DNA from: Thermoplasmatota archaeon
GTDB taxonomy: Archaea; Thermoplasmatota; Penumbrarchaeia; Penumbrarchaeales; Penumbrarchaeaceae
Reading direction: 5' to 3'
Assembly: GCA_025457865.1 (NCBI GenBank)
Contig: JALOTP010000001.1
Location: 96,457-160,456, forward strand
Length of the DNA: 64,000 nucleotides
Below are positions 10,861 through 56,895 of this stretch, piece by piece (position 1 is the stretch's first letter; each line of letters opens with the position of its first letter). The notes under the pieces were generated by a model. That model had not been told where the DNA came from and ran no database searches. It saw only the letters and a program-made list of their open reading frames with translations. Position numbers and translations under genes: made by a program.

Positions 10861-10864
10861 AATT

Positions 10865-11677: not shown

Positions 11678-11689
11678 TGGAGGAATACT

Positions 11690-12190
11690 ATGAAAAATAT
11701 TATAATCTATATATTATCAATAACTTTCATATTAATTATTGGATGCCTTGACAATAATGAACCCAGTCAAGAAATGTATAATGGAAATATTGATTTATCT
11801 ATTCATATTTCAAATAATGATCTTAACCAAATTTTAGTAAATATCTTATTAGAAAATATTGATTCTCACAAAATAACGATTCAACCATTATACTTATGGG
11901 GAAATCTTCAAATTAATATTTCAGATGCAAATGGATTGAAGGTTTTTAGTGCGGATAAACCTAAGTTATTTTCTTTGACAAATGATGATTTGATAACGAT
12001 AAAAGAGAATCAAAATATCACGTTGACAATTAATTTATATGAGCATTTCAATTTTAATCGTAATTTCACACAACCATATTCAATATATGCACAATATAAA
12101 ACTTCAGATATTGGTGGAGGAAATGAAAAGCTTAATTCATGGAAAGGTGAACTAATTTCGAATATAATCGAATTCAAGATAACTTCATAA
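11690..12190 (+). CDS. Predicted lipoprotein (copy B partner)
   Basis: MKNIIIYILSITFILIIGC gives a signal peptide plus lipobox. A GGAGGAATACTATG RBS-like sequence precedes the start. 166 aa, N/I-rich. Confidence 0.55.
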   Translation: MKNIIIYILSITFILIIGCLDNNEPSQEMYNGNIDLSIHISNNDLNQILVNILLENIDSHKITIQPLYLWGNLQINISDANGLKVFSADKPKLFSLTNDDLITIKENQNITLTINLYEHFNFNRNFTQPYSIYAQYKTSDIGGGNEKLNSWKGELISNIIEFKITS

Positions 12191-34573: not shown

Positions 34574-36655
34574 TCAACTTCCGGGCGGACCCTGCACGAA
34601 CATCTCTTTGCAGCTCGGACATGCAGAAGTGCCCTCGGCCACTTCGGACCCGCACTTCGAGCAGGTAAGTACCTCTTCGAAGATGGCCCCGCAGCCCTGG
34701 CACCTCATATCTCCCGGGGCCATACCGGTCCCGCACTCGGGGCAGGGCTCGGACCCTTCATCATCCTTATCCAGATCATCCTCATCATCTTCCGCTTCGT
34801 CCTCCTCATCTATGTCGTCCGCGGGAGGCTCCGCTCCATCCGAGCTCCCTTCACAGGACTGGCTGGATGCATCTTTGGCATCGGGGGCTGCCGATATTGG
34901 CGAAGTTCCCTGCTCCGCCTCCTCCTTGGAGCGCTCTTTCCTTGTCAAGAGCATGACGATGAGAGCGATAACTGCGAGGATGACGACCGCGATGATGATG
35001 ACCTCCCAGGGGAACCCCTCATCCTCCTCTTCTACCCTTATCTCAACGGTATCTGTGGATTCGAGGTCCCCGTCGGTCGCGTGGAGTGTGTAGGTGTACT
35101 TTCCGGAGGGGAGGTCGAAGACCTTGACAGAGGCCCCGTTTGCCCTCCATGAAGAGGCTTTGCTCCTTGTCCACCAGACTGTGACCTTGTCACCGTCGGG
35201 GTCGGTCGCGCTGGCCGACAGCGTGAACGCACCGCCCTCCTTGACCTTTTCCTGGTCGGATGCGGCCTTCGTTATGACAGGGGCCCTGTTGGCGTTCGAT
35301 GTGATGTTCTGGACGACCGTCCTTGTATTGCCCGCAGGGTCCTTGATGGTGACCGTTACGGTATGGCGGCCGGGAGCAAGGGACGGTATGGTAACGGTGC
35401 CGCCATGTGCGGTCCATTCGGGGTCGGTCGATATGGTCCATGTGAAGTTCAGTTCCTTTCCTTCGGGGTCCGATGCCTGGACGGTGAGCGTCACAGGCCG
35501 CCTCTCCCTCACTGTCAGGTCCTTGATTGCCCCAATGATGACGGGGCGCTTGTCATGTATTCGGGGGAGCGGGTCCTCGACATTGGGTATCTGGTCCCCG
35601 TCCATGTCGGGATCGAGCTCGTTCAATATGCCGTCGGAGTCCATGTCAAGGTCCAGCACCGTCGAGATGGATGACGGTCGCGCCTCATTGTAGTTCTCCG
35701 CCATCCTTTCAATGGTAGGCGCAGTGCCGGTGATGTCAGGGAAGCTGAGAATGGACATATCGAATGAGAACGTGCCTTCGAGACCGTCCTTCATTGCCCT
35801 GACCAGCGGTCTGACCACCGTTGTACCGGTCGGTGCCTCGAGAAGTGCAACGGAGTCCCCCTGCACCGTTCTGAACCGAAAGCCCCTGTCGGAAACGGAG
35901 AACTGCCCGGACCTGGTCTCGGGAGCGAAAAGGTGGTTAGACCCGTACATGACCTCGAGCTCGCAGTCGGGGGCTTCCTTCAGGACCATCAGAAGGAACC
36001 TGGTCCCGTTGCCTGCGACGGCATAGGGGTACGGGTACGGATCGATGAGCGTCCTGGGGGAACCGGGCTGTTCCGTTAAGAGGTCGGCGACCTCCAGCGT
36101 TATGGCCTCCTCTCCCATCCTTATCCCCGGGGAGGCCGGGGCATTGAAAAGGACCGAGATCTCAACGGTTTCGCTCTCGTTATCGACCATGTCCAGGGCA
36201 TCGTCAATGTTGCCGGCGACGTCGTACTGGGAGCTGCCTCCCGAGACCCTGCCGGGAAGGTCGTCCCTGGCGGCATATCGGATGGCGTCCCGGGCCGTTA
36301 TGGTCCAGTCCCATTCGTGTGGGATGGCGGGTTCGAACCAGGTGTGGCTGCCCGAGATCATGCTCGAACCCGGAACGGTGATGAACACTGTGTCAATATC
36401 GTTATCGGCATCATGGTTCTCGACCTTGAACGTCAGCTCTGCGCGTCTCCCGGCACCAAGTATGATGAGGCCCTCCGGGAGCGAAGGGTCGGACATGACG
36501 CCCTGGGTCCCTGATATGTCCGACATGACGTCCCCTCTCGAGATGGTGCTGCCGAAACCGCCATGGGACCTGTCAAGGAGCATGATGGCCCCCAACGAAC
36601 CAATGAGAACGACGAGCGCTATACTGACAGCTATCTTTTCGCTTGGAAGACCCAT
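34574..36655 (-). CDS. Surface protein with Ig-like/PKD-like domains, single TM anchor, acidic cytoplasmic linker and C-terminal zinc ribbon
   Basis: Signal/TM at the N-terminus and PKD-like beta domains (FTWTIS..., VTVWWTRS...). A TM helix (VIIIAVVILAVIALIVMLL) is followed by a D/E-rich stretch and CPECG...CQGCG...CSKCG...CPSC. Confidence 0.65.
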   Translation of the reverse strand: MGLPSEKIAVSIALVVLIGSLGAIMLLDRSHGGFGSTISRGDVMSDISGTQGVMSDPSLPEGLIILGAGRRAELTFKVENHDADNDIDTVFITVPGSSMISGSHTWFEPAIPHEWDWTITARDAIRYAARDDLPGRVSGGSSQYDVAGNIDDALDMVDNESETVEISVLFNAPASPGIRMGEEAITLEVADLLTEQPGSPRTLIDPYPYPYAVAGNGTRFLLMVLKEAPDCELEVMYGSNHLFAPETRSGQFSVSDRGFRFRTVQGDSVALLEAPTGTTVVRPLVRAMKDGLEGTFSFDMSILSFPDITGTAPTIERMAENYNEARPSSISTVLDLDMDSDGILNELDPDMDGDQIPNVEDPLPRIHDKRPVIIGAIKDLTVRERRPVTLTVQASDPEGKELNFTWTISTDPEWTAHGGTVTIPSLAPGRHTVTVTIKDPAGNTRTVVQNITSNANRAPVITKAASDQEKVKEGGAFTLSASATDPDGDKVTVWWTRSKASSWRANGASVKVFDLPSGKYTYTLHATDGDLESTDTVEIRVEEEDEGFPWEVIIIAVVILAVIALIVMLLTRKERSKEEAEQGTSPISAAPDAKDASSQSCEGSSDGAEPPADDIDEEDEAEDDEDDLDKDDEGSEPCPECGTGMAPGDMRCQGCGAIFEEVLTCSKCGSEVAEGTSACPSCKEMFVQGPPGS

Positions 36656-37910: not shown

Positions 37911-40898
37911 TTGGCCTTGTTCATGGTAGCTTGCAGGACACTTGCGATATGGACGATGGCCATCCCACTCATCATGACCGGTATTGCCATCGGCGTTTCC
38001 CAAGTAGCTCTTGCCGATGAGATGCCGACAAGGGATATCACTGGAAAGACCGCAATTTCAGGAGGTCTTCTCCAGAGCGGCTCCTTCACAACGGTAGAGG
38101 TCTGGGACCACGATAAGGATGGAAAGGACGAGATGTACCTGGGGGGTGCGGGCAGGTCGAACCCGAAGACCCAGGGCATCCTTGCCTACGAGTTCAACAA
38201 TGCCACGAAGACCTGGGCAGCCTATGGTTCAGGGCTCCCCACCACAGGTTATTACGGGGCGCTGGGCCTGGGCGATGTGAACAAGGATGGATATTTGGAC
38301 ATAGCCGCTCCAGTTCCTACCATGTGGTATTCAGTGTCCACCAACGCGGTCTATGTCTATACCAGCAATTCCGCCGGGGCCTTCTCGCTCTCCCATACCT
38401 TCTCCCCGGGCAAGTCCACCAACGAAGCGGAGATCGGCGATATTGATGCAGATGGGAACATGGACATCGCGTGGACGTACTACGGTGGCCTCACCGTTCA
38501 GTTCGGCTCGGGGAGCGCGACATCATGGACGGAGTCCAGCCCCACGGCCGCAGGGAACGAGCTTGATGGCCTGGCCCTGGGCGACCTCAACAGGGACGGT
38601 AAGCTCGACATACTCAGCACACCTTACAGTAACAGTGCGATAAGGCTCTATGTGCAGGGTAATTCAAGGTCTTGGACAGAGGTCACTTTCAAGACGGTAA
38701 ATGTTGGTTTCGGCATCAAGATAGCGGACATCAACAATGATGGGAAGAACGATGTGGTCTATGGTACACGCTCCTCTGGTATCAAGGTATGGACTGGTGA
38801 CGGAGCAAGCTCCGTGGGGGGCACGACCTTCACCTGGACCGATAACTCCTCAGGTCTGCCCACAGGGAGCGGTGACTGGTCCCAGCTGGAGCTCGGTGAT
38901 GTCAACGAGGACGGGAAGCTTGATATAATCGCTTCATCGAACGGTCAGAACAGGACAAGGATATACCTGAACAATCAGCCCAACAGCTGGACAGAGCTGT
39001 TCTCCGCCTCCGCAGAGGGGCTATACATAGGCGGAAGCGCCTACGGCGGTAATTTCGGCGACTGGGACGGTGACGGCAGGCTCGATTGCGCCGGGTGTTC
39101 GTGGGGAGGCGGGGTGGATGCATGGCTGATCAATAGGCCAGGAACACCACCACCGCCCCCTATCAACAAAGCCCCGGTCCCCAAAGCTTCGAACGATATC
39201 ACGCTGCTCGTCGGCCAGACGGCGAACCTAAACGGTCTGGCTTCGACAGACCCCGAGGACGCACCGACAGGGGACCCAGCAGGCACCGTTCTGTCCTATG
39301 ACTGGAACATCACTTCCGTCCCGGCAGGTTCGTCCATCACCGATGCTTCGCTGACCCCTTCCGATAAGACCGCTTCCGTAAGCTTCGTTCCGGACAGGGT
39401 CGGGACGTACAATATATCGCTTGCTGTGAAGGATAAAAAGGACAAATGGAGCGCCCCCGGAGCGGAGGACTGGGTCATCGTCAAGGCCCTCAAGCCCAAC
39501 GAGCTTCCAGTGGCGAACGCAGGTCAGGACAAGAGCGCTTACAGGGGTGCGATGGTCCAAATGGACGGTTCTGCCAGCTATGACCCTGACGGCACCATTG
39601 GCACCTGGGAGTGGGTCTGCACCTCCTTCAACGTGGCGTTCTCCAATCCGAACAGCGCGAAGCCAACATTCATCGCAACCCATCTGGGTGAGCATACCAT
39701 CACTCTGAAGGTGAGGGACAACAATCTAACATGGTCCCCAATTGACACGGTCCTTGTCAACATCAGGGACCTGGGTCAGGACCTGCCCCCTATAGCCAAC
39801 GCCGGGACCGATGTCCTGGTGACCTTGGGGGACACCGTGACGCTGGACGGTTCGGGTTCCTTCGACCCTGACGGGTCCATTGTGACGTGGGAATGGACCT
39901 CCCTATCCCATCCTTCGCTCGTACTGTCCTCACCCAACAGCTCATCCCCGTCCTTCGTTCCTGCTGAGGTATCGACCTACGTCCTCAGCCTGAGGGTGAG
40001 GGATACCAATGGAACGTGGTCCGCTCCTGACGATGTTGTGGTGACCGTCGAGGCGCCGTACTTCAACGAAAGGCCCATTGCCGATGCCGGGTCGGACCTG
40101 GACCTCAAAGTAGGGGAAAAGGCAACGCTCGATGGAAGGTCCTCAAGCGATCCCAACGGCCAGGTGACGGAATACAACTGGACCTGCACCTCCCATACGT
40201 TGACGCTCCAGGAACCAAGGACCGCTAGGCCCTATTTCGTTCCGTCAGCGGTCGGGAACTACATCTTCGAGCTCAGGGTGATGGACGATGAGGACGCATG
40301 GTCCGGTCCGGACACGGTGATGGTCAAGGTGACAGCTAGACCGGTCACCGCATTCGATGCCACAATAGGTCCTTTCCAGTACAACGATTCCACCCCACTT
40401 GTCGGCGCCATCGTCACCATTGCGATGGCATCCGCATCAAGGACGGCGACCGTGGGTTCATCGGGGACGGTATCTTTCACCGCCCTGCTCATAGGGACGT
40501 ATTCGGTGGATGTCGTCCTGAACGGGACCAAGGTGATATCAGGGAAGCGTTTCGTACTAGGGTCCGATGGTATAGTGAGCTATCCGGACGGTCCTTTCCC
40601 TGCTGTCGTCAAGGTGGTGGTGCCTCCGGTGGACGACGATGACGAGCCTCCTGCTGACGACGATGATGATGGCTCCCCTATGGTCGGGATCATAATAGGG
40701 GCCGCATTGTTCATTCTGGTCATGATAGTGATCGGTGCCATTGCGGCCTTATTGGTGATCTCCCGCAGGAAGGAGGCCGAAGATGGGCCTAAGGTCAGGG
40801 AGAAAGGCATGAAGGAATGCCCGAAATGCAAAATGCCCATGCAGTTCAAAAATGACTTTAATAGGTACTACTGCCCATCATGCAAGGGGTACCGCTGA
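37911..40898 (+). CDS. FG-GAP (integrin-alpha-like beta-propeller) plus PKD-domain surface protein with TM anchor and C-terminal zinc ribbon
   Basis: Repeated GDVNKDGYLDI / GDIDADGNMDI / GDLNRDGKLDI / ADINNDGKNDV / GDVNEDGKLDI / GDWDGDGRLD Ca-binding FG-GAP loops, then four or more PKD-like domains (YDWNITS, WEWVCTS, WEWTSLS, YNWTCTS). A TM helix (MVGIIIGAALFILVMIVIGAIAALLV) is followed by CPKC...CPSC. The start may be Met 37956. Confidence 0.75.
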   Translation: MALFMVACRTLAIWTMAIPLIMTGIAIGVSQVALADEMPTRDITGKTAISGGLLQSGSFTTVEVWDHDKDGKDEMYLGGAGRSNPKTQGILAYEFNNATKTWAAYGSGLPTTGYYGALGLGDVNKDGYLDIAAPVPTMWYSVSTNAVYVYTSNSAGAFSLSHTFSPGKSTNEAEIGDIDADGNMDIAWTYYGGLTVQFGSGSATSWTESSPTAAGNELDGLALGDLNRDGKLDILSTPYSNSAIRLYVQGNSRSWTEVTFKTVNVGFGIKIADINNDGKNDVVYGTRSSGIKVWTGDGASSVGGTTFTWTDNSSGLPTGSGDWSQLELGDVNEDGKLDIIASSNGQNRTRIYLNNQPNSWTELFSASAEGLYIGGSAYGGNFGDWDGDGRLDCAGCSWGGGVDAWLINRPGTPPPPPINKAPVPKASNDITLLVGQTANLNGLASTDPEDAPTGDPAGTVLSYDWNITSVPAGSSITDASLTPSDKTASVSFVPDRVGTYNISLAVKDKKDKWSAPGAEDWVIVKALKPNELPVANAGQDKSAYRGAMVQMDGSASYDPDGTIGTWEWVCTSFNVAFSNPNSAKPTFIATHLGEHTITLKVRDNNLTWSPIDTVLVNIRDLGQDLPPIANAGTDVLVTLGDTVTLDGSGSFDPDGSIVTWEWTSLSHPSLVLSSPNSSSPSFVPAEVSTYVLSLRVRDTNGTWSAPDDVVVTVEAPYFNERPIADAGSDLDLKVGEKATLDGRSSSDPNGQVTEYNWTCTSHTLTLQEPRTARPYFVPSAVGNYIFELRVMDDEDAWSGPDTVMVKVTARPVTAFDATIGPFQYNDSTPLVGAIVTIAMASASRTATVGSSGTVSFTALLIGTYSVDVVLNGTKVISGKRFVLGSDGIVSYPDGPFPAVVKVVVPPVDDDDEPPADDDDDGSPMVGIIIGAALFILVMIVIGAIAALLVISRRKEAEDGPKVREKGMKECPKCKMPMQFKNDFNRYYCPSCKGYR

Positions 40899-43072: not shown

Positions 43073-43774
43073 CTACACGTACATCGGACCAGGGCTGGGG
43101 CCGTTCTCTTTTTCGGCCTTTCCGTTCTTCTCAAGGAGGTCCATCATCTGCTTCAGGAATGTCTTTGCATCTGCCGGCTGGAGACCTGCCCTATCTGTCA
43201 GGAACTCGAGGATCTGCTCCTTGGACTCACCTGAGGCGAGCTTTTCCGCGACTATGGTCTTGTACTTGTTGACCATGAACTCCTCCATTTCCTTGGTCAG
43301 GTCCAGTATCTTTATGAGATTATGGGCACCCACGACAAGGAGGGTGAGGGCGTCGTTGAACTCCTGCTTGCTCAATGAATGGAGGTCGAGGTCCACCTGT
43401 ATGACGGGATTGTCATCGTAGCCGATCAGTCCTGCCTTCATGAGGTTCAGGTCGGTATTGAGGTGGAGGAGCTTCTTGTACAGCCTCATCCTCTCAGGTA
43501 CATCAAGGGCATCGGTCGGGATTATGGGGTTTATGACCAGGTTGGCATAGTGCTTGGTCACGACCACCTCTATGTTGAAAGGTATCTTCGGGTGGGTCGC
43601 CACTATAAGGTCGTTCTCGGTCCCCTCTACCTTCTTGACCTCCAGGTCCCATGGAATGTCCAGGAGGGATTCCGAATCTTCCTTCCCCTCCTTTAGCCAG
43701 TTGGAGAACATCTCCGTCCACTCGTTCATGGTCATCCGGTGCAAAACATGGTATTTATAGTTAAATGTATCCAC
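43073..43774 (-). CDS. Hypothetical protein (233 aa)
   Basis: Clean ORF with host-like codon usage. No motif recognised. Confidence 0.45.
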   Translation of the reverse strand: MDTFNYKYHVLHRMTMNEWTEMFSNWLKEGKEDSESLLDIPWDLEVKKVEGTENDLIVATHPKIPFNIEVVVTKHYANLVINPIIPTDALDVPERMRLYKKLLHLNTDLNLMKAGLIGYDDNPVIQVDLDLHSLSKQEFNDALTLLVVGAHNLIKILDLTKEMEEFMVNKYKTIVAEKLASGESKEQILEFLTDRAGLQPADAKTFLKQMMDLLEKNGKAEKENGPSPGPMYV

Positions 43775-45657: not shown

Positions 45658-48600
45658 ATGTTCAAGAGAGATCTACTGGTGGCAATAGCTATTCTTACTT
45701 TTTTGAGCGTACCATCTGTAACGTGTTACCCCCATTCATCTGGACCTGTAGGAACCCCTTGGACCATGGACGGTGACCTGGAGATGGACATGAACATCTC
45801 GGAAGCGTCTATGGCATCGTTCATTGGCGAAGGCGCTTGGGATTCTTCGGGTTTTTCCGTGTCAAGGGCAGGGGATGTGAACGGCGATGGGTTGGATGAT
45901 ATCATCATAGGTGCCCAACAGAATGGGGAGGGTGGCTCTGGTGCGGGTCAGACATACCTCTTCTTCGGAAGGGCGAGCGGTTGGGAGATGGATACGAACC
46001 TCAGCATGGCCGATGCCTCGTTCATTGGGGAGGATGATGGTGATGGTTCCGGCCATTGTGTGGTGGATGCCGGTGATGTGAACGATGATGGTTATGATGA
46101 TATCCTCATAGGTGCGAACCAGGATGAGGACGGCGGGAACGGGGCAGGTCAGACATACCTCGTTCTCGGTAGGGCGTCAGGATGGACAATGGACACCGAC
46201 CTGAGCTTGGCCGATGCCTCGTTCATAGGGGAGGATGATGGTGACAATTCCGGTCATACGGTGGATGGGGCGGGGGATGTGAACGGTGACGGGTTCGATG
46301 ACATACTCATAGGGGCCTATGGGGACGAAGATGGAGGCGGTGGAAACGCAGGTCAGACCTATTTGATATTGGGTAAAGCCTCGGGCTGGGCCATGGATAC
46401 TGACCTCAGCCAGTCCGATGCATCGTTCTGGGGTGAGGAAGGTGGGGATTGGTCGGCCTATTCGGTTGCGGGCGCCGGAGACGTGAACGGGGATGGTCTC
46501 GATGACATCCTTGCCGGAGCCTCCGACAATGATGCAGGAGGGAATGCCGCTGGCCAAGCCTATCTGATACTGGGAAAGGCCTCAGGTTGGGCGATGGATA
46601 CAGACCTATCAGCTTCCAGTGCATCCTTCTGGGGCGAGGAAAGCGTTGACTATTCAGGTATCACGGTATCAGGACCGGGAGATGTGAACGGTGATGGCTA
46701 TGACGATATCTTCATCGGGGGTTCGAACAATGATGAGGGGGGGGACAATTTCGGCCAATATTATCTGGTCCTGGGGAAGGCCTCTGGGTGGGCGATGGAC
46801 ACCGACCTGAGCCTCTCGGACGCTTCGTTCCGAGGAGAGTACAGTGGGAGTTGGACGGGGAGGCAGGTTTCCGGGGCAGGAGATGTGAACGGTGATGGGT
46901 TCTATGATATAATGGTAGCGGATTCCTATGCAAATGAGGGTAATTCCGGAGCAGGTCAGACCTATCTGATATATGGGAAGGCCTCAGGATGGTCGATGGA
47001 TCAAGACCTGAACGAGTCCGACGTCTCCTTCATAGGGGAGGACAACGGGGACCAATCTGGGTATTCCGCTCATGGTGCCGGAGACGTCAATGGGGATGGC
47101 AACGACGACATCCTTGTCGGGGCTCCCGGAGATGAGGAAGGCGGCCCGCAATCAGGTCAGACCTACCTAATCTCCATCGAAGGTTTCTCCGAACCATTGG
47201 CGGTCTATGACGTCACGGTCAGGAATGGAATGGGGGAATTGGTCCAGGCCGCCGATATAGGAGAATCAGTCATCATAGAGATTAAAGGTCTGGACAGGAA
47301 CGAATCACATATGGACAAGGCTAGGGTCAACGTTTCCTTCAGCTCCGGAAAACCCGCACAGATCACCGTTGGCCTGATAGAGACCGGTCTGGACACAGGA
47401 CTGTACCGCGGCATCTACAGGGTGAATGTGAACGCTGAATATTTCCAGAGTATCCATTTTTCGGCATATATAGCCCCATCTGAATACTACAATGTGAAGG
47501 TGGATTATCCCTATAGGCCCGATAATGTGGTATCACTGGGTGTCTATTCGAGCCTGACCAGTTCGACCTTGTTAGATAAGTTGGACCTGGGCCAGACAGT
47601 CTATATCAAATGCTCTGGAGAGGATTCGAACAAGTTGACCATAGATAAAGCGTTCGTTAACCTGACCTCGGACAAGAACACGACCTACCATTCCATGGTC
47701 GTCATGATGGAAACGGGGGCATCCACAGGAGTGTTCACCTCATCGTTCACCGTCCCTAGTACGATGGGTTATTTCGAGAACATAACAATGTCATCGGCAG
47801 AGACACCCTCTGTCACTGCGATGTTCATGGTCCATACGCCTGTCCAGCTAAGAGCTACAGGTCCGTTCCGAAAAGCCCAGGAAGATTTGGAGTACAGGGT
47901 GGGTTTCTACAATTTCGGTTATAGTACGGTGACCTGGACCCTGACCACTGATGCATATTGGCTGGAATGGGACGAGGTGGGACATGTGCTCGATGGAACA
48001 CCGAGGAACATCGACGTTGGGGCTGACATCTGGAAGGTCATGGTCCGAATATCGGACGATCAAAGCCGCAGTCATGAGCTGTTGTACAACATCACTGTGA
48101 AGAATACGGACCCGTCGATACTCACAGAGCCTATGACCGAATGCATAGAGTACGATCCGTACCACCTTGACCTGGATTCCAGCGATGATGAGGGCGGTGA
48201 GACCACCTGGTATCTCAACACTGATGCAGAGTTCCTGAGCATTGAGAAGGATACAGGTATCTTGAAAGGAAACCCGATAGGTGTGGATATCGGGGAATAT
48301 CTAGTCAATGTCCAGGTAAGGGACGGGAAAGGAGGGACCGGTAATCTGATCTATGACCTGACGGTGGTCGGGAGGAACGATGGACCCCAGATCACAACCA
48401 CCGACATCAAGCAGGTCGAACAGGACACACCCTTCCGAAGGGATTACGAGGTCTTCGACCCTGATGAGGGGGATTCCCATCACTGGACGCTTAGGACCGA
48501 TGCGGATTGGTTGAGCATGGAGAACGATACTGGAGTTTTGTTCGGGACACCAAATGGTTATGACGTTGGAGACTGCTTCATTAATATCACTGTCACTGAC

Positions 48601-49929
48601 GAGGGAGGGTTGAGCGACTATCGTCAGCTAACGTTCAAGGTCATCGATCTAAAGGATAGACCTGTGTTCGATTCATTGCCCGAGGATGTCGAACTGCTGC
48701 ATGGGAGACGATACAACTTCGATATGAACGCATCCGATCCGGATAAGGATACTATATTGGTATACTCTATCTCAACCGAACCCATCAGCGATATGGCAAT
48801 AGACTCAAGGACCGGAGAGGTCAATTGGATCGCATCCTTCAGGTCCATGCCAGTAACCGGGGATGGAATGGTGGTTCGGGTGAAGGTGTCCGATGGTGAA
48901 CTGTTCTCGGTCCATGAGTTCATGGTCAATGTCATACCGACAAGATCCCCCATCGCTCAGCTCTTATCCCCCGTCATAGGGACAAGGACCCTATCAGGAT
49001 ATTCATTGCTCGAATGGTCGGGGTCCGATCCCGAGAACGAACCTTTGACCTATACGCTCTACTTGGCGGACAGCAATGCCTACCTATCAGCCAGGAGGGT
49101 TGAGGATATCAAGGCTGAAAGGATCCAAGATGACCATATCAACCTGACCGGACTGATCCAGGGCAAGACCTATTACTGGTCGGTAGTCCCGGACGACGGA
49201 TGCACTCAGGGGACCTGCTCAAACGGTATCTTCAACTTCAGGGTCAACAGCAGGCCCGCTCTGATAGATGTGAAGGACCAGACTATTGAGGTCGATATGA
49301 TGTTCAGGTCCAAGCTATCAGGTAGTGATGACGACCAGGATGATGCCGTAAGGTACGAACTTGTCGATGGACCGTCCGGATTGACCGTAAAGGCCGAGAC
49401 CGGGATGATCGAATGGACCCCGGGGTCAGATCAGGTCGGGACCCATACGGTCACTATACGAGCGACAGATGGGTATGAGTGGACGAAGATAGACTTCGAA
49501 ATTAAAGTTGTGGAGAAATCTGGACCGAACCTTGGATTGATATTGGGCGCGTTAATAGTAATTCTGATAATTGTCATCATAGCTCTGGTCCTTTTCATCG
49601 TTGTTTTCAGGAAGCGACCCTCTGAGGAGGAAGTGGTGGTCGAGGAGGAAGATGAGGAATCGAAGAGGATACGCGAAGAATTGGTGCAGCTTCGTAGCGA
49701 GAAGGATTGGGAGTCGGCCCATTCAAAGCCGTCCGATCAGGTTGTGGCTTCGGTGCCCTCCTCTGTTACAGAGGCCCATGCCAATGATAGGACATTGAGG
49801 AAGATGAGCTATGAGGACCTCTATGGACAGCCCGCACCTGACAAGAGCGAGGAACTTACTACAGAGGAGCTGAAGGGAGAGCTCAAGAAGCTGACCGAAG
49901 AGCTGAAGGGCTCAATGGTCGAGGAATGA
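45658..49929 (+). CDS. Giant surface protein: signal peptide, ~8 FG-GAP repeats, Ig/cadherin-like domains, TM anchor and conserved coiled-coil cytoplasmic tail (paralogue 1)
   Basis: 1423 aa. Repeated GAGDVNGDG(F/Y/L)DDI(L/I)IGA modules, a TM helix LGLILGALIVILIIVIIALVLFIVVF, and a tail containing SVPSSVTEAHANDRTLRKMSYEDLYGQPAPDKSEELTTEELKGELKKL. Confidence 0.8.
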   Translation: MFKRDLLVAIAILTFLSVPSVTCYPHSSGPVGTPWTMDGDLEMDMNISEASMASFIGEGAWDSSGFSVSRAGDVNGDGLDDIIIGAQQNGEGGSGAGQTYLFFGRASGWEMDTNLSMADASFIGEDDGDGSGHCVVDAGDVNDDGYDDILIGANQDEDGGNGAGQTYLVLGRASGWTMDTDLSLADASFIGEDDGDNSGHTVDGAGDVNGDGFDDILIGAYGDEDGGGGNAGQTYLILGKASGWAMDTDLSQSDASFWGEEGGDWSAYSVAGAGDVNGDGLDDILAGASDNDAGGNAAGQAYLILGKASGWAMDTDLSASSASFWGEESVDYSGITVSGPGDVNGDGYDDIFIGGSNNDEGGDNFGQYYLVLGKASGWAMDTDLSLSDASFRGEYSGSWTGRQVSGAGDVNGDGFYDIMVADSYANEGNSGAGQTYLIYGKASGWSMDQDLNESDVSFIGEDNGDQSGYSAHGAGDVNGDGNDDILVGAPGDEEGGPQSGQTYLISIEGFSEPLAVYDVTVRNGMGELVQAADIGESVIIEIKGLDRNESHMDKARVNVSFSSGKPAQITVGLIETGLDTGLYRGIYRVNVNAEYFQSIHFSAYIAPSEYYNVKVDYPYRPDNVVSLGVYSSLTSSTLLDKLDLGQTVYIKCSGEDSNKLTIDKAFVNLTSDKNTTYHSMVVMMETGASTGVFTSSFTVPSTMGYFENITMSSAETPSVTAMFMVHTPVQLRATGPFRKAQEDLEYRVGFYNFGYSTVTWTLTTDAYWLEWDEVGHVLDGTPRNIDVGADIWKVMVRISDDQSRSHELLYNITVKNTDPSILTEPMTECIEYDPYHLDLDSSDDEGGETTWYLNTDAEFLSIEKDTGILKGNPIGVDIGEYLVNVQVRDGKGGTGNLIYDLTVVGRNDGPQITTTDIKQVEQDTPFRRDYEVFDPDEGDSHHWTLRTDADWLSMENDTGVLFGTPNGYDVGDCFINITVTDEGGLSDYRQLTFKVIDLKDRPVFDSLPEDVELLHGRRYNFDMNASDPDKDTILVYSISTEPISDMAIDSRTGEVNWIASFRSMPVTGDGMVVRVKVSDGELFSVHEFMVNVIPTRSPIAQLLSPVIGTRTLSGYSLLEWSGSDPENEPLTYTLYLADSNAYLSARRVEDIKAERIQDDHINLTGLIQGKTYYWSVVPDDGCTQGTCSNGIFNFRVNSRPALIDVKDQTIEVDMMFRSKLSGSDDDQDDAVRYELVDGPSGLTVKAETGMIEWTPGSDQVGTHTVTIRATDGYEWTKIDFEIKVVEKSGPNLGLILGALIVILIIVIIALVLFIVVFRKRPSEEEVVVEEEDEESKRIREELVQLRSEKDWESAHSKPSDQVVASVPSSVTEAHANDRTLRKMSYEDLYGQPAPDKSEELTTEELKGELKKLTEELKGSMVEE
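45850..47170 (+). repeat. Internal tandem FG-GAP coding repeats (~200-nt period) within giant gene 1
   Basis: Recurrent nucleotide blocks encoding GKASGWAMDTDLS...ASF.GE...GDVNGDG (e.g. near 46375, 46575, 46780). Confidence 0.55.
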
Positions 49930-50066
49930 CAGGACCTCGGGTCGACCTTAACAAGGGCGATTGGAATGGGGTCAGGACCAAATAGGTCGAAAAAACCCTC
50001 TCGAGAACTTTAAAAAAGGAAGCACACATCTAGGCTCTACCTAATAGTGCACGGGGTGTAGCTCAG

Positions 50067-53000
50067 ATGAGTTCGAAAGTGAACATGGTGCTAGTTGCCA
50101 GCGTGGTCCTTTTAATGGCCCTTTTCCCCACCGTCATCTCGGACGGCAGCGGACCAGGACCAGTTCCGGGCCCCAGGGGTGACCTTTCCAAGAACATGGA
50201 CCTCAAAGACGCTGCTTTCGCATCTTTCCTTGGAGAGAGGCCCAACAGCAGGTCCGGGACCTCGGTCGCAGGATTGGGTGATGTTAACGGTGACGGTATC
50301 GATGATATCATCATAGGCGCCAGTGACGACAATGAGTGGGGTATGCTATCTGGACAGGCTTACCTTTTCCTGGGAGGCCCTTTCGGATTGAAGAGAGGGT
50401 TGAGCCTATCAGAGGCAGATGCGTCCTTCTACGGCAATCAAGATGGATTGGCCGGGTTTTCGGTTGCCGGGGCAGGGGATGTCAACAATGACGGCTTGAA
50501 CGATATCCTAATCGGTTCTTACAACGACCCGGACGGAGCGTTGCAGGCAGGGAAGGCGTATCTCATCTTCGGTAAGAGGACAGGCTGGGAGATGGACACA
50601 TCCCTATCCAGCGCCAGTGCGAGCTTCATGGGGACCATGCCCCACATGCAGTGCGGTTTCTCCGTTGCGGGGGCAGGGGACGTAAATAAGGACGGGTTCG
50701 ATGATATCCTCATCGGAAGCAAGCTTGGCCGCGTCTATCTCTTCTTCGGAAAAGCGTCCGGTTGGACACAGAACAGGCAGCTCCCCACAGCCGATGTCAG
50801 TTTCACCGAGGAAGGACCTGTAGAAGGGATAGGGGATTCAGTGGCCGGAGCGGGCGATGTCAATGGGGATGGTTATGAAGATATTTTGCTGGGTGCCCCC
50901 CTTAACGATGAGAACGCTCCCGATTCAGGTCAGACCTATCTCATCCTTGGCAGGTCCGGACCATGGCTCCCGGACGTCCTGCTGACCAATGCCGACGCAT
51001 CGTTCCTGGGCGAGAGCGAGAACGACCGCTCCGGCATCAGCATCGCCGGGGGAGGCGACGTGGACGGCGACGGTTATGACGATATCGTCATAGGTGCCGA
51101 CGGCCACAGCCAGGTCGCGATGCATGGAGGGAAGTCCTACATCATATTCGGAAGGTCTAGCGGATGGTCCATGGACACAAGGCTCTCCGGTCCCGTTGTG
51201 TCGTTCATGGGAGATGACGAAGGGGACCAGATAGGGAACCCCCTCTCATCTGCCGGGGACCTCAACATGGACGGCCTGGACGATATATTGATATCCTCTC
51301 CCTTCAACGGGGAGAACGGGGTCCAATCCGGAAAGGTCCATCTTATCTTCGGTCGGAGGACCGGTTGGGGCGTAAACGTATCTATCTCAAAGGCCAATGC
51401 ATCGTTCATGGGGGAGACCGGAGGGGACAATGCGGGCTCATCCTTAGCGGCCGCTGGGGATGTCGATGGGGACGGATTGAACGAGATCGTACTGGGGGCC
51501 AAGCACCGTTCCGAGGGGGAGAACCTCGCCGGAAAGACATACCTTGTCAAGGGACCTGCGGGGACCGAACCATTGTCGGTCCAATCCATAAGCGTGTTCT
51601 CCGGAGGCTTCGGACTTAAAGCGGGCAGGTTCGACAAGGGTGACAGGGCATTCATAGAGATGAAGGGGGTCGATGGGAACCTGACGCATACTGACCATGT
51701 CAGGGTCATAGTGGGCTTCAGCAGGACCTATGCGGGGACCATCGATATCTTTCTCAAGGAGACGGGACCGAACACAGGTGTTTACAGGGGCTCCTTCCAT
51801 GTCCCGACAACGACCGAATATTTCGAGACCATAACGTTCTATGCGGCCAAGGACCCGTTGAAATATGCCAGGATAGTGGTGGACTATCCGTACAGACCCT
51901 CCAGCGTCACTGCGATAGGGGTCTACTCGAGCCCGACAGGTCTAACACCCCTTGACAAGCTCGACTACGGCCAGACGGTCTATTTCAGAAGCGTCGGGGT
52001 CGATTCGAACACGTCTCGGGTCGATAAGGCGTTCGTGAACATGAGTTCCGACAAGAACGCAAGCTACCTACCAATGCTGGTCCTGACCGAGACCGGTGCA
52101 TCGACAGGGACCTTCGTGGTGCAGTTCAAGGTCCCATCGACCATGCAGTGGTTCGAGAACATCACCCTCACCTCGGTCGAGACGGCGGCGAAGAAAGCGA
52201 AGTTCATGGTCCATACCCCCGTCCAGGTCAGGGCCGCTGGACCTTACAAGGACGCAGTGGAGGATTCTGAGTACAGGGTGTCATTCTATAACTTCGGATA
52301 CAATCCGGTCATATGGACCGCTACTAAGAACGCTTACTGGCTCAACTGGAACGATAAGAAGCTGGAGCTCTACGGTACCCCCCGCAACAACGACGTGGGG
52401 GACAGCGATTGGGAGGTCCTTGTGACCATAGAGGACGAGTTCGAGCACAGGAGCAGTCTCGAGTACGTCCTAAGGGTCATCAATACCCCACCCGAGATAC
52501 TCACACCACCGGTGACCGAATGGTACGAGAACAGGCCATATCTGGTGGATTTCAACTGCGATGACGACGGTCAGGGTTCCATGACCTGGACCTTGAGCAC
52601 CATTGCACCGTTCCTCAAGATCGACAAGACCTCCGGTGTCCTGAGCGGCACCCCTATTGTGGGGGATTCCGGGTCCTATGTTGTGACGGTACAGGTCCAC
52701 GACGGTCATGGCGGCATCGATGAGGTCCGTTACAACCTGACCATAGAGGATGAGAACGACCCGCCCCAGATAACGACCACGGACATCAAACAGGTGGAGC
52801 AGGACACCCCTTTCAGACGGGACTACGATGTCTATGACCCTGACCAGAACGACATCCATAACTGGACGCTAAGGACCGATGCGGAATGGTTGGGGATCGA
52901 GAACGGTACAGGCGTACTTTTCGGTACACCCGACGGGTACGACGTCGGCGACTGGATTGTGAACATCACCGTAACCGACCAGGGAGGTTTGAGCGACAGT

Positions 53001-54353
53001 CAGGAGTTCACGCTGAAGGTCCTGGATATAGAGGACGCACCGAAGTTCATAGATGTACCGAGGAACAAGGAGCTCCCCCACGGGACAGAACTCTACTTCG
53101 ATGTGAACGCAACCGACTATGACAAAGACGACAAGGTGGCCTACAGCGTCATGACCGAGCCTTCGAGCAATATGCTGATAGACCCAACGACCGGCGATCT
53201 GAGATGGACCGCGAGCTATCGCTCGATGCCGCAGAACGAGGTGGGTATGAAGGTCACATTGAGAGCTACCGACGGGCAGCTCACCACTTCTTACGAATTC
53301 TTCGTGAAGGTGACCCCGACGCTCTCCCCATACAGCCAGCTCGTGTCACCGGCCAAAGGGGCCAGGACAGCTCAGGATAAGACCATACTGCATTGGGGGG
53401 GGACCGACCCTGAGGACGACCCGCTGATCTACATACTCTACCTTGCGGACACGGAGGCCTATATAACATCGAAGAGCCCCGATAGTATGGTCTCATCCAC
53501 CATCACGGGAACGACCTATGAGTTAACAAGGCTCACGCCTGGCAAGACCTATTACTGGACCGTCATACCTGACGATACTTGCACCTACGGTACCTGTACG
53601 AACGGTGTGTTCAGCTTCAGGGTGAACAACAGGCCTGTCCTTGAGACCGTCAAGGACCAGTTCACTGCTGAAGGGGATGAGTTCCTCTACAAGCTGATGG
53701 GCAGCGATGGCGACCAGGACGACAAGTTGGTCTATGCCCTGGAGAAGGGTCCGTCGGGTATGACCCTGAGGGATTCCACGGGTATGCTCGTCTGGACACC
53801 AAAGAGCGGACAGGCCGGTACCCATACGGTGAAGGTCAATGTCACCGACGGATATGAGATAATGATGGTCCAGTTCAGGATCGTGGTTTCGGAGAAGGAA
53901 GGACCCAACATTGGCCTTCTGATAGGTATCGCGCTTGGGGTCATAGTTCTCATCATCGCCGCACTCCTCCTCTTTTTCCTCGTGATCAAAAAGAAGGGAG
54001 AGGAGGAAGGAGGGGAGGTCAAGGAGGAAGAGGACGAGGAGACCAAGCAGCTGAGGGAGGAGCTCGAGCAGAAGGAGAGAGAGACGGGGTGGACGGAAGG
54101 GGGAGCGAAGCCTCCCGGAGAACAGCGGACCATCACCTCTGTCCCATCATCCATCGCCGAGGCACATGCCCAGGACAAGACATTGAAGAAGATGGGCTAC
54201 GAGGAGCTCTACGGACAGCCTGCACCCGATAAGGACGAGGAGCTGACCACGGAGGAACTGAAGGACGAGCTCGAGAAGCTCGCAGAGCAGCTCCGGAACG
54301 CAGGGACCGAGGACGCATCCATAGACCTCGGTGAGGAAGAGAACGGGACTTGA
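50067..54353 (+). CDS. Giant surface protein paralogue 2 (FG-GAP repeats, Ig/cadherin-like domains, TM anchor, conserved cytoplasmic tail)
   Basis: 1428 aa, collinear with paralogue 1. Long near-identical blocks (NDPPQITTTDIKQVEQDTPFRRDYDVYDPD..., GKTYYWTVIPDDTCTYGTCTNGVFSFRVNNRP) and a matching tail (SVPSSIAEAHAQDKTLKKMGYEELYGQPAPDKDEELTTEELKDELEKL). Confidence 0.8.
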   Translation: MSSKVNMVLVASVVLLMALFPTVISDGSGPGPVPGPRGDLSKNMDLKDAAFASFLGERPNSRSGTSVAGLGDVNGDGIDDIIIGASDDNEWGMLSGQAYLFLGGPFGLKRGLSLSEADASFYGNQDGLAGFSVAGAGDVNNDGLNDILIGSYNDPDGALQAGKAYLIFGKRTGWEMDTSLSSASASFMGTMPHMQCGFSVAGAGDVNKDGFDDILIGSKLGRVYLFFGKASGWTQNRQLPTADVSFTEEGPVEGIGDSVAGAGDVNGDGYEDILLGAPLNDENAPDSGQTYLILGRSGPWLPDVLLTNADASFLGESENDRSGISIAGGGDVDGDGYDDIVIGADGHSQVAMHGGKSYIIFGRSSGWSMDTRLSGPVVSFMGDDEGDQIGNPLSSAGDLNMDGLDDILISSPFNGENGVQSGKVHLIFGRRTGWGVNVSISKANASFMGETGGDNAGSSLAAAGDVDGDGLNEIVLGAKHRSEGENLAGKTYLVKGPAGTEPLSVQSISVFSGGFGLKAGRFDKGDRAFIEMKGVDGNLTHTDHVRVIVGFSRTYAGTIDIFLKETGPNTGVYRGSFHVPTTTEYFETITFYAAKDPLKYARIVVDYPYRPSSVTAIGVYSSPTGLTPLDKLDYGQTVYFRSVGVDSNTSRVDKAFVNMSSDKNASYLPMLVLTETGASTGTFVVQFKVPSTMQWFENITLTSVETAAKKAKFMVHTPVQVRAAGPYKDAVEDSEYRVSFYNFGYNPVIWTATKNAYWLNWNDKKLELYGTPRNNDVGDSDWEVLVTIEDEFEHRSSLEYVLRVINTPPEILTPPVTEWYENRPYLVDFNCDDDGQGSMTWTLSTIAPFLKIDKTSGVLSGTPIVGDSGSYVVTVQVHDGHGGIDEVRYNLTIEDENDPPQITTTDIKQVEQDTPFRRDYDVYDPDQNDIHNWTLRTDAEWLGIENGTGVLFGTPDGYDVGDWIVNITVTDQGGLSDSQEFTLKVLDIEDAPKFIDVPRNKELPHGTELYFDVNATDYDKDDKVAYSVMTEPSSNMLIDPTTGDLRWTASYRSMPQNEVGMKVTLRATDGQLTTSYEFFVKVTPTLSPYSQLVSPAKGARTAQDKTILHWGGTDPEDDPLIYILYLADTEAYITSKSPDSMVSSTITGTTYELTRLTPGKTYYWTVIPDDTCTYGTCTNGVFSFRVNNRPVLETVKDQFTAEGDEFLYKLMGSDGDQDDKLVYALEKGPSGMTLRDSTGMLVWTPKSGQAGTHTVKVNVTDGYEIMMVQFRIVVSEKEGPNIGLLIGIALGVIVLIIAALLLFFLVIKKKGEEEGGEVKEEEDEETKQLREELEQKERETGWTEGGAKPPGEQRTITSVPSSIAEAHAQDKTLKKMGYEELYGQPAPDKDEELTTEELKDELEKLAEQLRNAGTEDASIDLGEEENGT

Positions 54354-54429
54354 GGTGATTTTTAAGGGTCAGGTGCCTTGGATGGCCATGTAAGAATAGC
54401 TACGATTATGATGACCACGATTATACATT

Positions 54430-56895
54430 CTATCCCATGCTCCTTTCCCTGATGACGTTCGCTATGTTTATCCTCGAAATGTACCTGAGGGTCATCAGCG
54501 AGACTAAGATGACCACACCGAGGATCATGATGGAGCCAAGGAAGAAACCCAGGTTCGAGAACCTTATGGTCAGGTTGAAGGCCTCATAGTCGTCCCCCGT
54601 CATCCTCAGCATCAGGTTCGCAAAGATGAAGCCGAACAGGACACCAAGGGTCATGCCTGAGACTATCACGAACAAGGCCTCCAGGGATATGAGCCTGGAT
54701 ACCTTCGTCATGGTCGCTCCGAGGGTCTTCATGGTAGCATAGTCCCTCTCCTTCTCCTCTGCGCTTATCTTGAACATCGTATATACTATCGCCCCGGCAA
54801 GGGCGGTACTGACGAGCCCGAGGATCGATATGGAGGAGACGAAGAGGTCGAAGTACTGGTCCAGCATGCCCTTCCTCTCATCGATGTTGGTCACGGAGGA
54901 GACGCCGCTCGTCGTTATCAATGCGTTCTCGAGGGGAACGTTCCTATCTTGCGGATCGGTCCTGATGTGGACCAGGTTCGCCATACCCTCTAGACCGGTG
55001 AGTGTCTGGATGGTCTGAAGGTCCGAGAAACAGTAGGGGCCGAAATGGTTCCCCTGGATTCCGGAGACCTCAAGCTGCATCCTCTCCATCCGGAGCCCTA
55101 TGACAGGGTCAACGACCGGGAGCATGACCTCAACACTATCGCCCACAGAGAGCGACAGCTTATCTGCTTGAAGGCTGGAGATGACGAGCTTTCCGGGTAT
55201 GAAGGAGCCTCTGTCCATCTCGAACTTGAAAGATAGCAGAGGGTCCCTCATGGCGTAGAGGACGCTGCCCTCCTCATCCCCCGAAGGCCCTAACTGGGTG
55301 GGGATGAACATCCCAGGGTTCACCGATGCTATGTCCCTGTGCTCCTCGGTCCATACCTCTGTGGAGTTCGCAGTAACGAACCTGTCCATCTGGACCTCGT
55401 AGGTCCAAAGGTTCCCCTCGGTCGTAGTATCCAGGACGACAGTGAAGACCTCAAGGACCATGATTATCGAGAGGAACAGTCCCAATGATATCCCGACACC
55501 GAGGGCTGTCGATATCGACCTGCCAGGTTTCCTTAAGATGTTCCTTGCCGTCAGTTTTATGGATACCGGTATGGTGCTCGATCTGCCTATGCTCCCAGAG
55601 AGCTTCCCGACCCGCTTCTTGGAGAGCCCCTCCCTAGATTGGATGACATCTATGGGTCTGACCCTCAGAGCGAAGAAGGCGGGAATGACCGTACAAGCCC
55701 AGCAGAGCAGCAGTGCTATGGCCAATCCGAGAACGTAGTAGGACCAGGTAGTACCGTATTCCATGAGGGGAAAGTCCAGGAGCGAATCAAGGAGCGATAT
55801 GAAAGCTCTGTTCAACGGGATCGACAGGAGCCATCCCATGAATGTCCCGAGGACCGCCACGATGGTGCCTATGGTCCCGAAATAGATGAGTACCGCCCTG
55901 TCCGGGATACCGAGCGCCTTGAACACACCTATCTGCGGTCTGTGCGTCCTTATCATCCTCCTTAGCGCCATGACCAATCCGAAGGCGGAGACGCCCCATA
56001 TGATGATGGGGAAGATGCCCATGCCCTGCTTGTCGTTCTCGTAATCGTTGATGAGGAAGTACCTGGAGGGGTTGTCGTCCCCCTTCGTTATCTTGACCGG
56101 GATGCCCTTGGACTCGAAAGCGGTCCTTAGGAGTTCCTTTACCCCGTCGATATCGCTCTTGTCCTTGAGGGTCAGGACCAGGTCATTGAAGAGAGGCTCG
56201 GTCCCGTTGTCGAAAAAAAGACCCATGGCCGTAACCAGGGGTACGCAGATGACCCCGAAGGAACGCTCCTCGGGCAAAATGGAACCTTCCCTCACGACAT
56301 AGAAATACTCCGGGACGGCCGTCTGCTCCAGGACCGTCAGCTCCATGGCCCTTAACCCCTTGATGACCGTTATCGAGCTCCCCTTGGTCAGATCGTATGC
56401 CTTTGAGTATTTCCTCTCGAGATAGCATTCGTTATTGACCTCATTTGAGAATGCGGGGACATCGTCGACGTAGTAGAGCGGTCTGTTGACCGTCTGACCG
56501 TTCAGATCGGTCCTGCCATCCTTCAGTTCATAGCCCATGATGAGGCCCTTTGTGGTCCTGGTGACATCTCCGTCCGTGTGGTTTATGAAGACCTCGAAGG
56601 AGAGCCTCGCCTCAAGGTCCTCTATCATACCGTTCAGGGACGGCGATCCCATCAGGTCCTCTATGAAGGACCGATTGACCGCTGCCCCGTACTGCAGCTG
56701 GACCTGCATGTCCATGAAAAGGCTCTCTGAATAGATGGCATCAAGGGAATCCCCCCTGAGCCTTGAGAAATCGTTGAAGGAGGAATATGCTGCCACGCCC
56801 AGGCCTATGACCAGGGCAAGGAGGAAGTACTGGACCTTGTGGGCCCAAACCTCCCGCAGCCCTTTCTTCAGGAAGGTCTTTTTCATGTTCACCAC
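54430..56895 (-). CDS. ABC transporter permease, MacB/FtsX-like (two FtsX domains)
   Basis: 821 aa with an N-terminal TM, a large extracytoplasmic domain, then three TMs, repeated twice. Confidence 0.8.
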   Translation of the reverse strand: MVNMKKTFLKKGLREVWAHKVQYFLLALVIGLGVAAYSSFNDFSRLRGDSLDAIYSESLFMDMQVQLQYGAAVNRSFIEDLMGSPSLNGMIEDLEARLSFEVFINHTDGDVTRTTKGLIMGYELKDGRTDLNGQTVNRPLYYVDDVPAFSNEVNNECYLERKYSKAYDLTKGSSITVIKGLRAMELTVLEQTAVPEYFYVVREGSILPEERSFGVICVPLVTAMGLFFDNGTEPLFNDLVLTLKDKSDIDGVKELLRTAFESKGIPVKITKGDDNPSRYFLINDYENDKQGMGIFPIIIWGVSAFGLVMALRRMIRTHRPQIGVFKALGIPDRAVLIYFGTIGTIVAVLGTFMGWLLSIPLNRAFISLLDSLLDFPLMEYGTTWSYYVLGLAIALLLCWACTVIPAFFALRVRPIDVIQSREGLSKKRVGKLSGSIGRSSTIPVSIKLTARNILRKPGRSISTALGVGISLGLFLSIIMVLEVFTVVLDTTTEGNLWTYEVQMDRFVTANSTEVWTEEHRDIASVNPGMFIPTQLGPSGDEEGSVLYAMRDPLLSFKFEMDRGSFIPGKLVISSLQADKLSLSVGDSVEVMLPVVDPVIGLRMERMQLEVSGIQGNHFGPYCFSDLQTIQTLTGLEGMANLVHIRTDPQDRNVPLENALITTSGVSSVTNIDERKGMLDQYFDLFVSSISILGLVSTALAGAIVYTMFKISAEEKERDYATMKTLGATMTKVSRLISLEALFVIVSGMTLGVLFGFIFANLMLRMTGDDYEAFNLTIRFSNLGFFLGSIMILGVVILVSLMTLRYISRINIANVIRERSMG

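Follow-up and report, generated by a model that had tools for sequence, protein, structure and literature searches.

A conserved and portable C-terminal module in the cytoplasmic tails of two tandem surface proteins with integrin-alpha-like heads from a Thermoplasmatota archaeon

Two neighbouring genes on a 64,000-nucleotide stretch of a Thermoplasmatota archaeon (contig JALOTP010000001.1, positions 96,457 to 160,456; hereafter the window) encode large surface proteins, A and B. The means by which the surface proteins of archaea communicate with the inside of the cell are poorly understood. An earlier note on this DNA had described a tandem, collinear pair, each member with a signal peptide, FG-GAP repeats, Ig-like domains and one transmembrane helix, and had proposed from the similarity of the two tails that they bind a conserved intracellular partner. 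The description is borne out in part, with corrections given below: the two open reading frames (ORFs) lie exactly at the positions given there, encode 1423 (A) and 1428 (B) residues, are separated by 137 bp and are collinear in a global alignment with very few gaps and 51% identity. Pfam finds six to seven FG-GAP repeats and three He_PIG domains, plus Big_9 in A and in B (E-values for FG-GAP and He_PIG of 2.2e-37 and 4.9e-30 in A, and of 2.8e-43 and 1.6e-36 in B). The results below identify A and B as old tandem paralogues of type I topology, with an integrin-alpha-type Ca-binding propeller as head and a specific, selected and portable module at the C-terminus. That this module docks A, B and other surface proteins to one common cytoplasmic partner is the reading we prefer, with moderate confidence.

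The first step is to locate the conservation. Between A and B, identity is 0.51 over the ectodomain, 0.35 in the transmembrane helix and 0.58 over the whole tail. The propeller, which had been thought substantially diverged, is close to average (0.48 versus 0.51 overall), and so is the supposedly near-identical membrane-proximal domain (A1201-1291, 0.53); the conserved ectodomain block is instead a He_PIG domain (A896-975, 0.71) that sits about 300-400 residues N-terminal of the transmembrane helix. The acidic cytoplasmic tails are 106 residues long in A and 121 in B. They are not nearly identical throughout, because the proximal part (A1318-1363) reaches just 0.43, as opposed to 0.71 in the last ~56 residues (A1364-1419), the C-terminal module, whose core SYEDLYGQPAP agrees in nine of 11 residues. 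The motif quoted in the earlier note is present in both genes, and a tblastn search of the window with it finds no other copy. Conservation is not focused on the tail as had been claimed; within the tail it is limited to the module, which only equals the He_PIG block. The best 48-column window of the alignment falls in that ectodomain block (38/48), the tail reaching 36/48, and by column permutation any 48-column window of at least 38 has p = 0.008.

A codon analysis of the pair shows what maintains this similarity. The proportion of synonymous differences (pS) is 0.72 gene-wide (motif 0.66, ectodomain block 0.67), whereas the proportion of nonsynonymous differences (pN) is 0.34 gene-wide and falls to 0.13 and 0.18, respectively, in these two segments. 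The combination of saturated synonymous sites with a lower pN means that purifying selection keeps the A and B modules similar, and within this pair the tail signal is purely selective. Gene conversion as the cause of the similarity is ruled out by the same saturation, as is an overlapping antisense ORF or RNA element, for which Rfam and tRNA scans of the window also gave no matches. The duplication is old, since orthologues can be assigned individually to A (P0007/L021/L053) and to B (P0149/L017/L060) in related metagenome-assembled genomes (MAGs).

The module gains definition when the family is considered as a whole. Among 120 matches of a search with full-length B, from which the sequence past the last transmembrane helix was taken as the tail, about 35 keep the motif on ectodomains that are 30-55% identical to those of A and B. 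The module has three parts, namely an EAHA box of the form V-P-[LS]-S-x-x-EAHA, the core SYE[DE]LYGxPAP and an amphipathic helix (TTxELKxxIxxxIxxLE). The family consensus reads S/T-Y-E-[DE]-L-Y-G-x-P-A-P, an acidic linker and [LM]-T-T-x-E-L-[KR]-x-x-I-x-x-x-I-x-x-L-E, preceded in a subset of tails, about 15 residues before the core, by V-[PA]-L-[ST]-x-x-E-A-H-A. Residues A, H, Y, Y, G and L do not vary in any of 38 diverged tails; the motif is thus not the generic low-complexity region that the earlier note had named as a possible objection. Column conservation over 35 full-length members averages 0.51 and rises to 0.757 in the core and 0.614 in the helix, the proximal acidic tail being the least conserved part of the whole protein (0.32). 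Of 190 pairs, 87% have a higher identity in the motif than in the ectodomain.

The module is also specific. A word-seeded protein search with the tail alone returned a single match of 61 residues (P0001). This match is a lone ORF (L003:6980-7165) that consists of the tail module only and follows a FrhB-like gene, no gene for an ectodomain preceding it; possible explanations are a relic or an artefact of assembly. When a 44-position profile of the motif was run exhaustively against 1.84 billion (1.84e9) representative proteins, 61 representatives matched, 33 of them at E <= 1e-10. All but one of the 54 new matches that were read carry the motif at the extreme C-terminus, the exception (P0171) being a weak match (E 1.2e-5) in a repetitive stretch near the N-terminus. 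Wherever these proteins are long enough, a transmembrane helix and a He_PIG-like TGxIxWTP...SDG module precede the motif, and the short matches are mostly fragments truncated at contig ends. Pfam, NCBIfam and a profile search of the PDB gave nothing significant for the module, and literature searches on the family and the motif found no description of either; the module appears to be previously undescribed.

With regard to distribution, the search with full-length B (which matches the database protein P0002 at 100% identity and 100% query coverage, although P0002 has 1422 residues and B 1428) recovers a very large family, in which the archaeal source names are all Thermoplasmatota or Thermoplasmata and one listed match is named merely "bacterium". 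A degenerate DNA pattern for YE[DE]LYGxPAP (38 bits), scanned over one genome per prokaryotic species, identified 30 loci, of which 28 lie in MAGs labelled Thermoplasmatota, with 2-5 copies in each MAG that has more than one match; the genomes with the motif amount to about 11 species representatives. The other two are bacterial, which is consistent with the roughly four matches that we estimate for this pattern by chance. Metagenomes added about 17 members, together with some unrelated chance families, and a viral scan with the same pattern yielded nothing relevant, just an unrelated AYEEFYGEPAPR protein.

The module is moreover not tied to one type of ectodomain. The full module also stands behind a DUF7948+SBBP propeller or a Laminin_G_3 head on a He_PIG stalk, and proteins that have neither FG-GAP nor He_PIG carry the core alone, lacking the helix, in their cytoplasmic tails. 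A PKD/cadherin-like family of about 930 residues (L005, L008, L011, L013, L031) carries it as VSYE[DE]LYGGPAP, an fn3/PKD/Big_5 protein (L016) has it too, and a Cadherin_4/Big_9 family (L035, L061) has it in duplicate (PPSYDELWGSAPS...TTYEDLYGAPAPS). Altogether, at least five further ectodomain architectures have the core in their tails. A conserved core within a fast-evolving, non-globular region, modular occurrence and duplication are what defines a short linear motif, and linear docking motifs are typically recognized by this combination of being short, conserved, disordered, portable and sometimes duplicated. The AlphaFold2 model of the transmembrane helix and tail agrees with this view, in that local confidence is high (predicted local distance difference test, pLDDT, 81.8) but there is no tertiary packing (predicted template-modelling score, pTM, 0.26). 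Past the transmembrane helix it shows an acidic helix, short helices at EAHA and YEDLY and one long terminal helix, and such predicted local helices without a globular fold would be typical of a peptide or helix docking element.

On the outer side, the head is integrin-alpha-like by predicted fold. Ca-binding loops of the form D-x-[ND]-x-DG-x-x-D recur in A at residues 73, 140, 207, 275, 342, 409 and 476, with a spacing of about 67 residues, and B also has exactly seven; the propeller hence has seven blades and not about eight, as had been supposed, and the model agrees. An AlphaFold2 model of A1-723, built from a 46-sequence alignment (pLDDT 90.3, pTM 0.77), contains seven blades of four strands each and, after them, two beta-sandwich domains, with an N-terminal helix and a low-confidence linker at the signal peptide. 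When A was compared with the PDB by phmmer, only integrin alpha chains were found (best alpha-V, E 2.9e-13, spanning A265-492), and the best 50 Foldseek matches of the head model are likewise all integrin alpha chains (top 4g1m_A, E 8.7e-22; template-modelling score 0.71 and root-mean-square deviation 4.8 for the propeller-only target 8tcg_A). These alignments extend past the propeller, over about 820-850 columns at a query template-modelling score (TMq) of 0.45-0.47; Pfam assigns the remaining stalk to He_PIG/Big_9, with Ig_SIBA-E_2nd below threshold (20.9 bits versus a cut-off of 27.8). Each ectodomain has 13 N-x-S/T sequons and the tail of A none. A single transmembrane helix of 26 residues follows in each protein and leads into the sequences FRKRPSEEE in A and IKKKGEEE in B.

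A cytoplasmic docking motif is expected to be conserved throughout a multi-copy family and on unrelated ectodomains, as is seen here, and this wider evidence makes the idea considerably stronger than the comparison of two genes could. Outside the cell, each protein displays a seven-bladed Ca-propeller on a long He_PIG Ig-like stalk; inside, the common partner would be, for instance, an adaptor, a signalling protein or part of a scaffold or of the cytoskeleton. Its clients would include the 2-5 FG-GAP/He_PIG paralogues of a genome as well as the SBBP-propeller, laminin-G, PKD, fn3 and cadherin-like proteins, so that variable, recombining adhesive or sensing heads would be coupled to one constant intracellular machinery.

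Several observations weigh against this reading. In a family-wide ranking of 44-residue windows the He_PIG block comes first and the tail window only seventh, on a par with the folded cores of the ectodomain. At short evolutionary distance the tail is no more constrained than the rest: between A and its orthologue the ratio of nonsynonymous to synonymous change (omega) is 0.19 overall and 0.20 in the tail. Compared with an omega of 0.023 for the TBP gene beside it, the whole A protein is fast-evolving, with pS along the gene ranging from 0.30 to 0.73. Some tail similarity in other genomes stems from gene conversion or recombination at the 3' end, for example between paralogues of the EX4484-6 MAG, in which pS is 0.15-0.56 in the transmembrane-plus-tail segment versus 0.58-0.81 in the ectodomain. 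The amphipathic helix could equally serve tail-tail association, the basis throughout is metagenomic sequence, and no gene recurs as a conserved neighbour of family members, either in an all-against-all ORF comparison of 30 loci or when the neighbour genes of the window were compared by tblastn with 63 loci. Gene order yielded no candidate for the partner; the neighbour matches reflect only synteny among close orthologues, with TBP upstream of A and FtsX downstream of B.

Two proteins encoded elsewhere are of interest in this respect. Directly downstream of the PKD-type genes with VSYE[DE]LYGGPAP lies a conserved protein of about 940-1005 residues (L011:3943-6957, L008:2419-5247 and, in L005, the reverse-strand ORF 3599-6400), helix-rich and coiled-coil-like as judged by eye, which might be considered as a partner and for which the window has no homologue. 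A 520-residue protein with a faint match to the tubulin family (L004:17742-19304) directly follows a triple array of family genes.

The recombination that complicates the tail comparisons is itself informative. Between B and its metagenome relative L060, codons 1000-1355 are synonymously saturated and 40-77% identical, whereas pS is 0.11-0.33 in the last ~75 codons and the downstream FtsX is 96% identical in amino acids. This contrast places a recombination breakpoint just before the module (the compared region corresponds to about 54135-56895 of the window), and in other genomes and lineages recombination moves ectodomains relative to the constant tail end.

The ectodomain also occurs with other tails. 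Some FG-GAP/He_PIG proteins carry two winged-helix DNA-binding domains (HTH_HVO_0163_N, HTH_24) directly past the transmembrane helix; P0029, P0082 and P0092 join an ectodomain of the A/B type to a cytoplasmic region of about 680 residues with an AAA_16 ATPase domain of the STAND type. Other tails end in SHOCT or in an acidic EIDLDDLEDED, and P0052 and P0079 have tails of about 450-470 residues without Pfam match. By these domain predictions, members of the ectodomain family are regularly linked to cytoplasmic effectors, and tandem arrays of paralogues are typical of it. At L064:1-24208 and L065:818-15782, four to six FG-GAP/He_PIG genes stand in tandem with winged-helix and SHOCT tails roughly alternating, which suggests paired receptors with a membrane-tethered transcription factor. 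L004 has three tandem paralogues of which only the middle one keeps the module, indicating that membrane insertion or biogenesis as such does not require it. The DNA-binding or ATPase tails of the relatives speak for a family that conveys information or force through the membrane instead of serving merely as a coat. Extra elements in cytoplasmic tails seem to be the rule for the surface proteins of this organism. In the window, single-pass PKD/cadherin-like (34574-36655, minus strand) and FG-GAP_3/PKD (37911-40898, plus strand) surface proteins have tails that end in zinc ribbons (double zinc ribbon; CPKC...CPSC), and a beta-helix/NosD protein (23460-25688, minus strand) has a tail of about 160 residues.

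Taken further, these data allow, tentatively, an adhesome-like system in an uncultured Thermoplasmatota clade, in which interchangeable heads (integrin-alpha-type propeller, SBBP propeller, laminin-G, PKD, cadherin-like) would be wired through the three-part tail code to one adaptor or cytoskeletal protein and sister receptors would signal directly through membrane-tethered winged-helix or STAND-ATPase tails. If so, an archaeon would have outside-in coupling of cell adhesion, comparable to that of integrins with their adaptors but of independent origin.

Less likely, and the closest competitor of the docking hypothesis, is self-association, in which the amphipathic helix zips the tails into homo- or hetero-oligomers that order a coat or lattice; the tails would then have a structural part (S-layer-like or anchoring) and not a signalling one. 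A structural role of the tails, by anchoring or by a lattice built on tail-tail contacts, is possible: the hydrophobic positions of the terminal helix show a heptad-like spacing, the model predicts this helix as one long element, paralogues form tandem arrays (in the window and at L004, L027, L064 and L065), and tails are more alike within one genome than between genomes. On the other hand, the non-helical core is more conserved than the helix that would do the zipping; its occurrence without the helix on other proteins, once in duplicate, fits peptide recognition better, and some tandem paralogues lack the module altogether. The earlier opinion that A and B are integrin-like receptors, as opposed to passive S-layer components, is supported by the head fold and the effector-tailed relatives and is overstated where hallmarks of integrins are concerned (see below). 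The sequence is compatible with an abundant, lattice-forming S-layer protein but does not demand one.

An unlikely alternative is that the motif is a signal for sorting, turnover or processing, for example for a protease or quality control, for targeting to the pole or to vesicles, or for modification of Tyr or His. Two Tyr and one His are among the invariant residues, the motif lies near the C-terminus in a disordered region, and it is common to many otherwise unrelated surface proteins. Yet it bears no likeness to known archaeal sorting signals. PGF-CTERM-type signals, recognized in archaeosortase substrates, also are a conserved C-terminal feature of archaeal surface proteins, but they consist of a short motif immediately before the C-terminal transmembrane helix with few basic residues after it. 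The present motif lies 47-80 residues past the helix (about 65 in A and B), on the cytoplasmic side, in A and B within tails of 106-121 residues without PGF, and this topology rules out a sorting signal of the archaeosortase type. No protease or kinase gene was linked to the family in the neighbourhoods compared, and recognition by an enzyme would strictly be a special case of partner binding and not an independent rival.

That A and B are true integrin homologues, i.e. alpha subunits with a beta partner and bidirectional signalling across the membrane, is very unlikely despite the resemblance of the head. FG-GAP propellers are widespread in prokaryotes, and we know of no beta subunit for proteins of the A/B type. 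With metazoan alpha subunits (alpha-V, alpha-5, alpha-IIb) A and B have in common the seven-bladed FG-GAP head with Ca loops, beta-sandwich domains after it, the single transmembrane helix and the tail, and integrin alpha chains are their best PDB matches by sequence and by fold; however, identity is just 15-19%, and the details differ. Judged by Pfam, the legs look He_PIG/cadherin-like and not like thigh, calf-1 and calf-2, although the structural alignments run on past the propeller, and the short metazoan tail with GFFKR (KxGFFxR) is replaced by an acidic tail of about 110 residues with its own EAHA/SYEDLYGxPAP/helix module, no GFFKR-type motif following the transmembrane helix in either protein. 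A Pfam scan of 22 ORFs of the window found no gene for a von Willebrand factor A domain with a metal-ion-dependent adhesion site (VWA/MIDAS, beta-I-like). Finally, metazoan alpha subunits confine their Ca loops to the last three or four blades, whereas A and B have them in all seven, as do the integrin-type propellers of bacteria, with their seven uniform FG-GAP repeats and one Ca motif per blade (Chouhan et al. 2011, PMC3192720). These bacterial proteins have no transmembrane helix, in contrast to A and B, which are anchored in the membrane and bear the conserved cytoplasmic module.

Hardly credible, lastly, is a functionless similarity left by recent duplication or gene conversion or by acidic low-complexity composition: the tails are indeed rich in E and K, and 3'-end conversion was found in another genome, but the synonymous sites of the A/B motif are saturated, the duplication predates the split from relatives that have separate A and B orthologues, and none of the invariant residues (Y, Y, G, H, A, L) is E or K, while the flanking acidic stretch is the least conserved part.

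The coordinates of the pair are given in Table 1. The context is archaeal, with a TBP gene immediately upstream of A and a DUF531 gene close by, and the TATA-box-like element before B is a candidate for a promoter of its own. Two kilobases upstream of A, a 233-residue protein (43073-43774, minus strand) has a weak Pfam match to CesT (type III secretion chaperone-like) and does not recur near other family members. A very large gene starts at about 59256 on the plus strand and runs off the window (to 64000, open-ended); its product has 2167 residues in a matching JGI contig, with a faint Fascin match. A low-GC island at 9104-12190 (plus strand; G+C fraction 0.30 versus about 0.55 elsewhere), with a VapB-antitoxin-like ORF and three ORFs without Pfam match, is probably foreign or mobile DNA.

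Table 1. Genes A and B and their features, in window coordinates
Feature	Position	Strand	Description and basis
Gene A	45658..49929	+	1423 aa, type I surface protein: signal peptide, 7-blade FG-GAP propeller, 2 beta-sandwich domains, He_PIG/Ig stalk, transmembrane helix, 106-aa tail; ORF, translation
Signal peptide of A (MFKRDLLVAIAILTFLSVPSVTCY)	45658..45729	+	Direct sequence reading
Seven-bladed beta-propeller of A	45778..47172	+	Ca-binding loop in each blade
Two beta-sandwich domains of A (aa 506-720)	47173..47817	+	All-beta, pLDDT about 86-94 (AlphaFold2); no Pfam match
Most conserved ectodomain block, He_PIG domain (aa 896-1000)	48343..48657	+	A/B identity 0.70-0.71, pN 0.18, pS 0.67
Transmembrane helix of A (LGLILGALIVILIIVIIALVLFIVVF)	49531..49608	+	Followed by RKR; residues 8-34 of tail model
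Conserved tail module of A (ASVPSSVTEAHAN...SYEDLYGQPAP...TTEELKGELKKLTEELKGS)	49747..49914	+	71% identical to B
Core short linear motif of A, SYEDLYGQPAP	49807..49839	+	Column conservation; invariant Y, Y, G
TATA-box-like element TTTAAAAA	50009..50016	+	About 50 nt 5' of B start codon; direct sequence reading
Gene B	50067..54353	+	1428-aa paralogue, architecture as in A; ORF, Pfam
Transmembrane helix of B (IGLLIGIALGVIVLIIAALLLFFLVI)	53910..53987	+	Followed by KKK
Conserved tail module of B (TSVPSSIAEAHAQ...GYEELYGQPAP...TTEELKDELEKLAEQLRNA)	54135..54302	+	A/B alignment, tail alignment
Core short linear motif of B, GYEELYGQPAP	54195..54227	+	Direct alignment with A

The docking hypothesis has the merit of naming a concrete peptide of about 56 residues, in which His, Tyr, Tyr and Gly are invariant, on many surface proteins of one archaeal lineage, and the motif profile can be used to annotate proteins that currently go by names such as "putative Ig domain-containing protein", "FG-GAP repeat protein" or "hypothetical protein". 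Among known systems, one-component regulators of the ToxR/CadC type share with the winged-helix-tailed relatives, and with these only, a membrane-tethered DNA-binding domain; the order is reversed in the relatives, with the sensor N-terminal and outside and the helix-turn-helix domain C-terminal, and A and B have no DNA-binding domain. A design logic is shared with PfEMP1, with its acidic terminal segment, and the SibA-E proteins of Dictyostelium, with their talin-binding tails, in which variable ectodomains stand on a conserved tail that docks to a submembrane scaffold. To our knowledge, neither talin nor knob proteins are known from the archaeon, and the tails of PfEMP1 and SibA-E have no sequence relationship to those of A and B, so that the likeness is one of analogy only: multi-copy proteins with fast-evolving, recombining ectodomains on a constant acidic tail. 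Should the partner be a scaffold or a cytoskeletal protein, A and B would represent an independently evolved archaeal analogue of the coupling between integrins and their adaptors.

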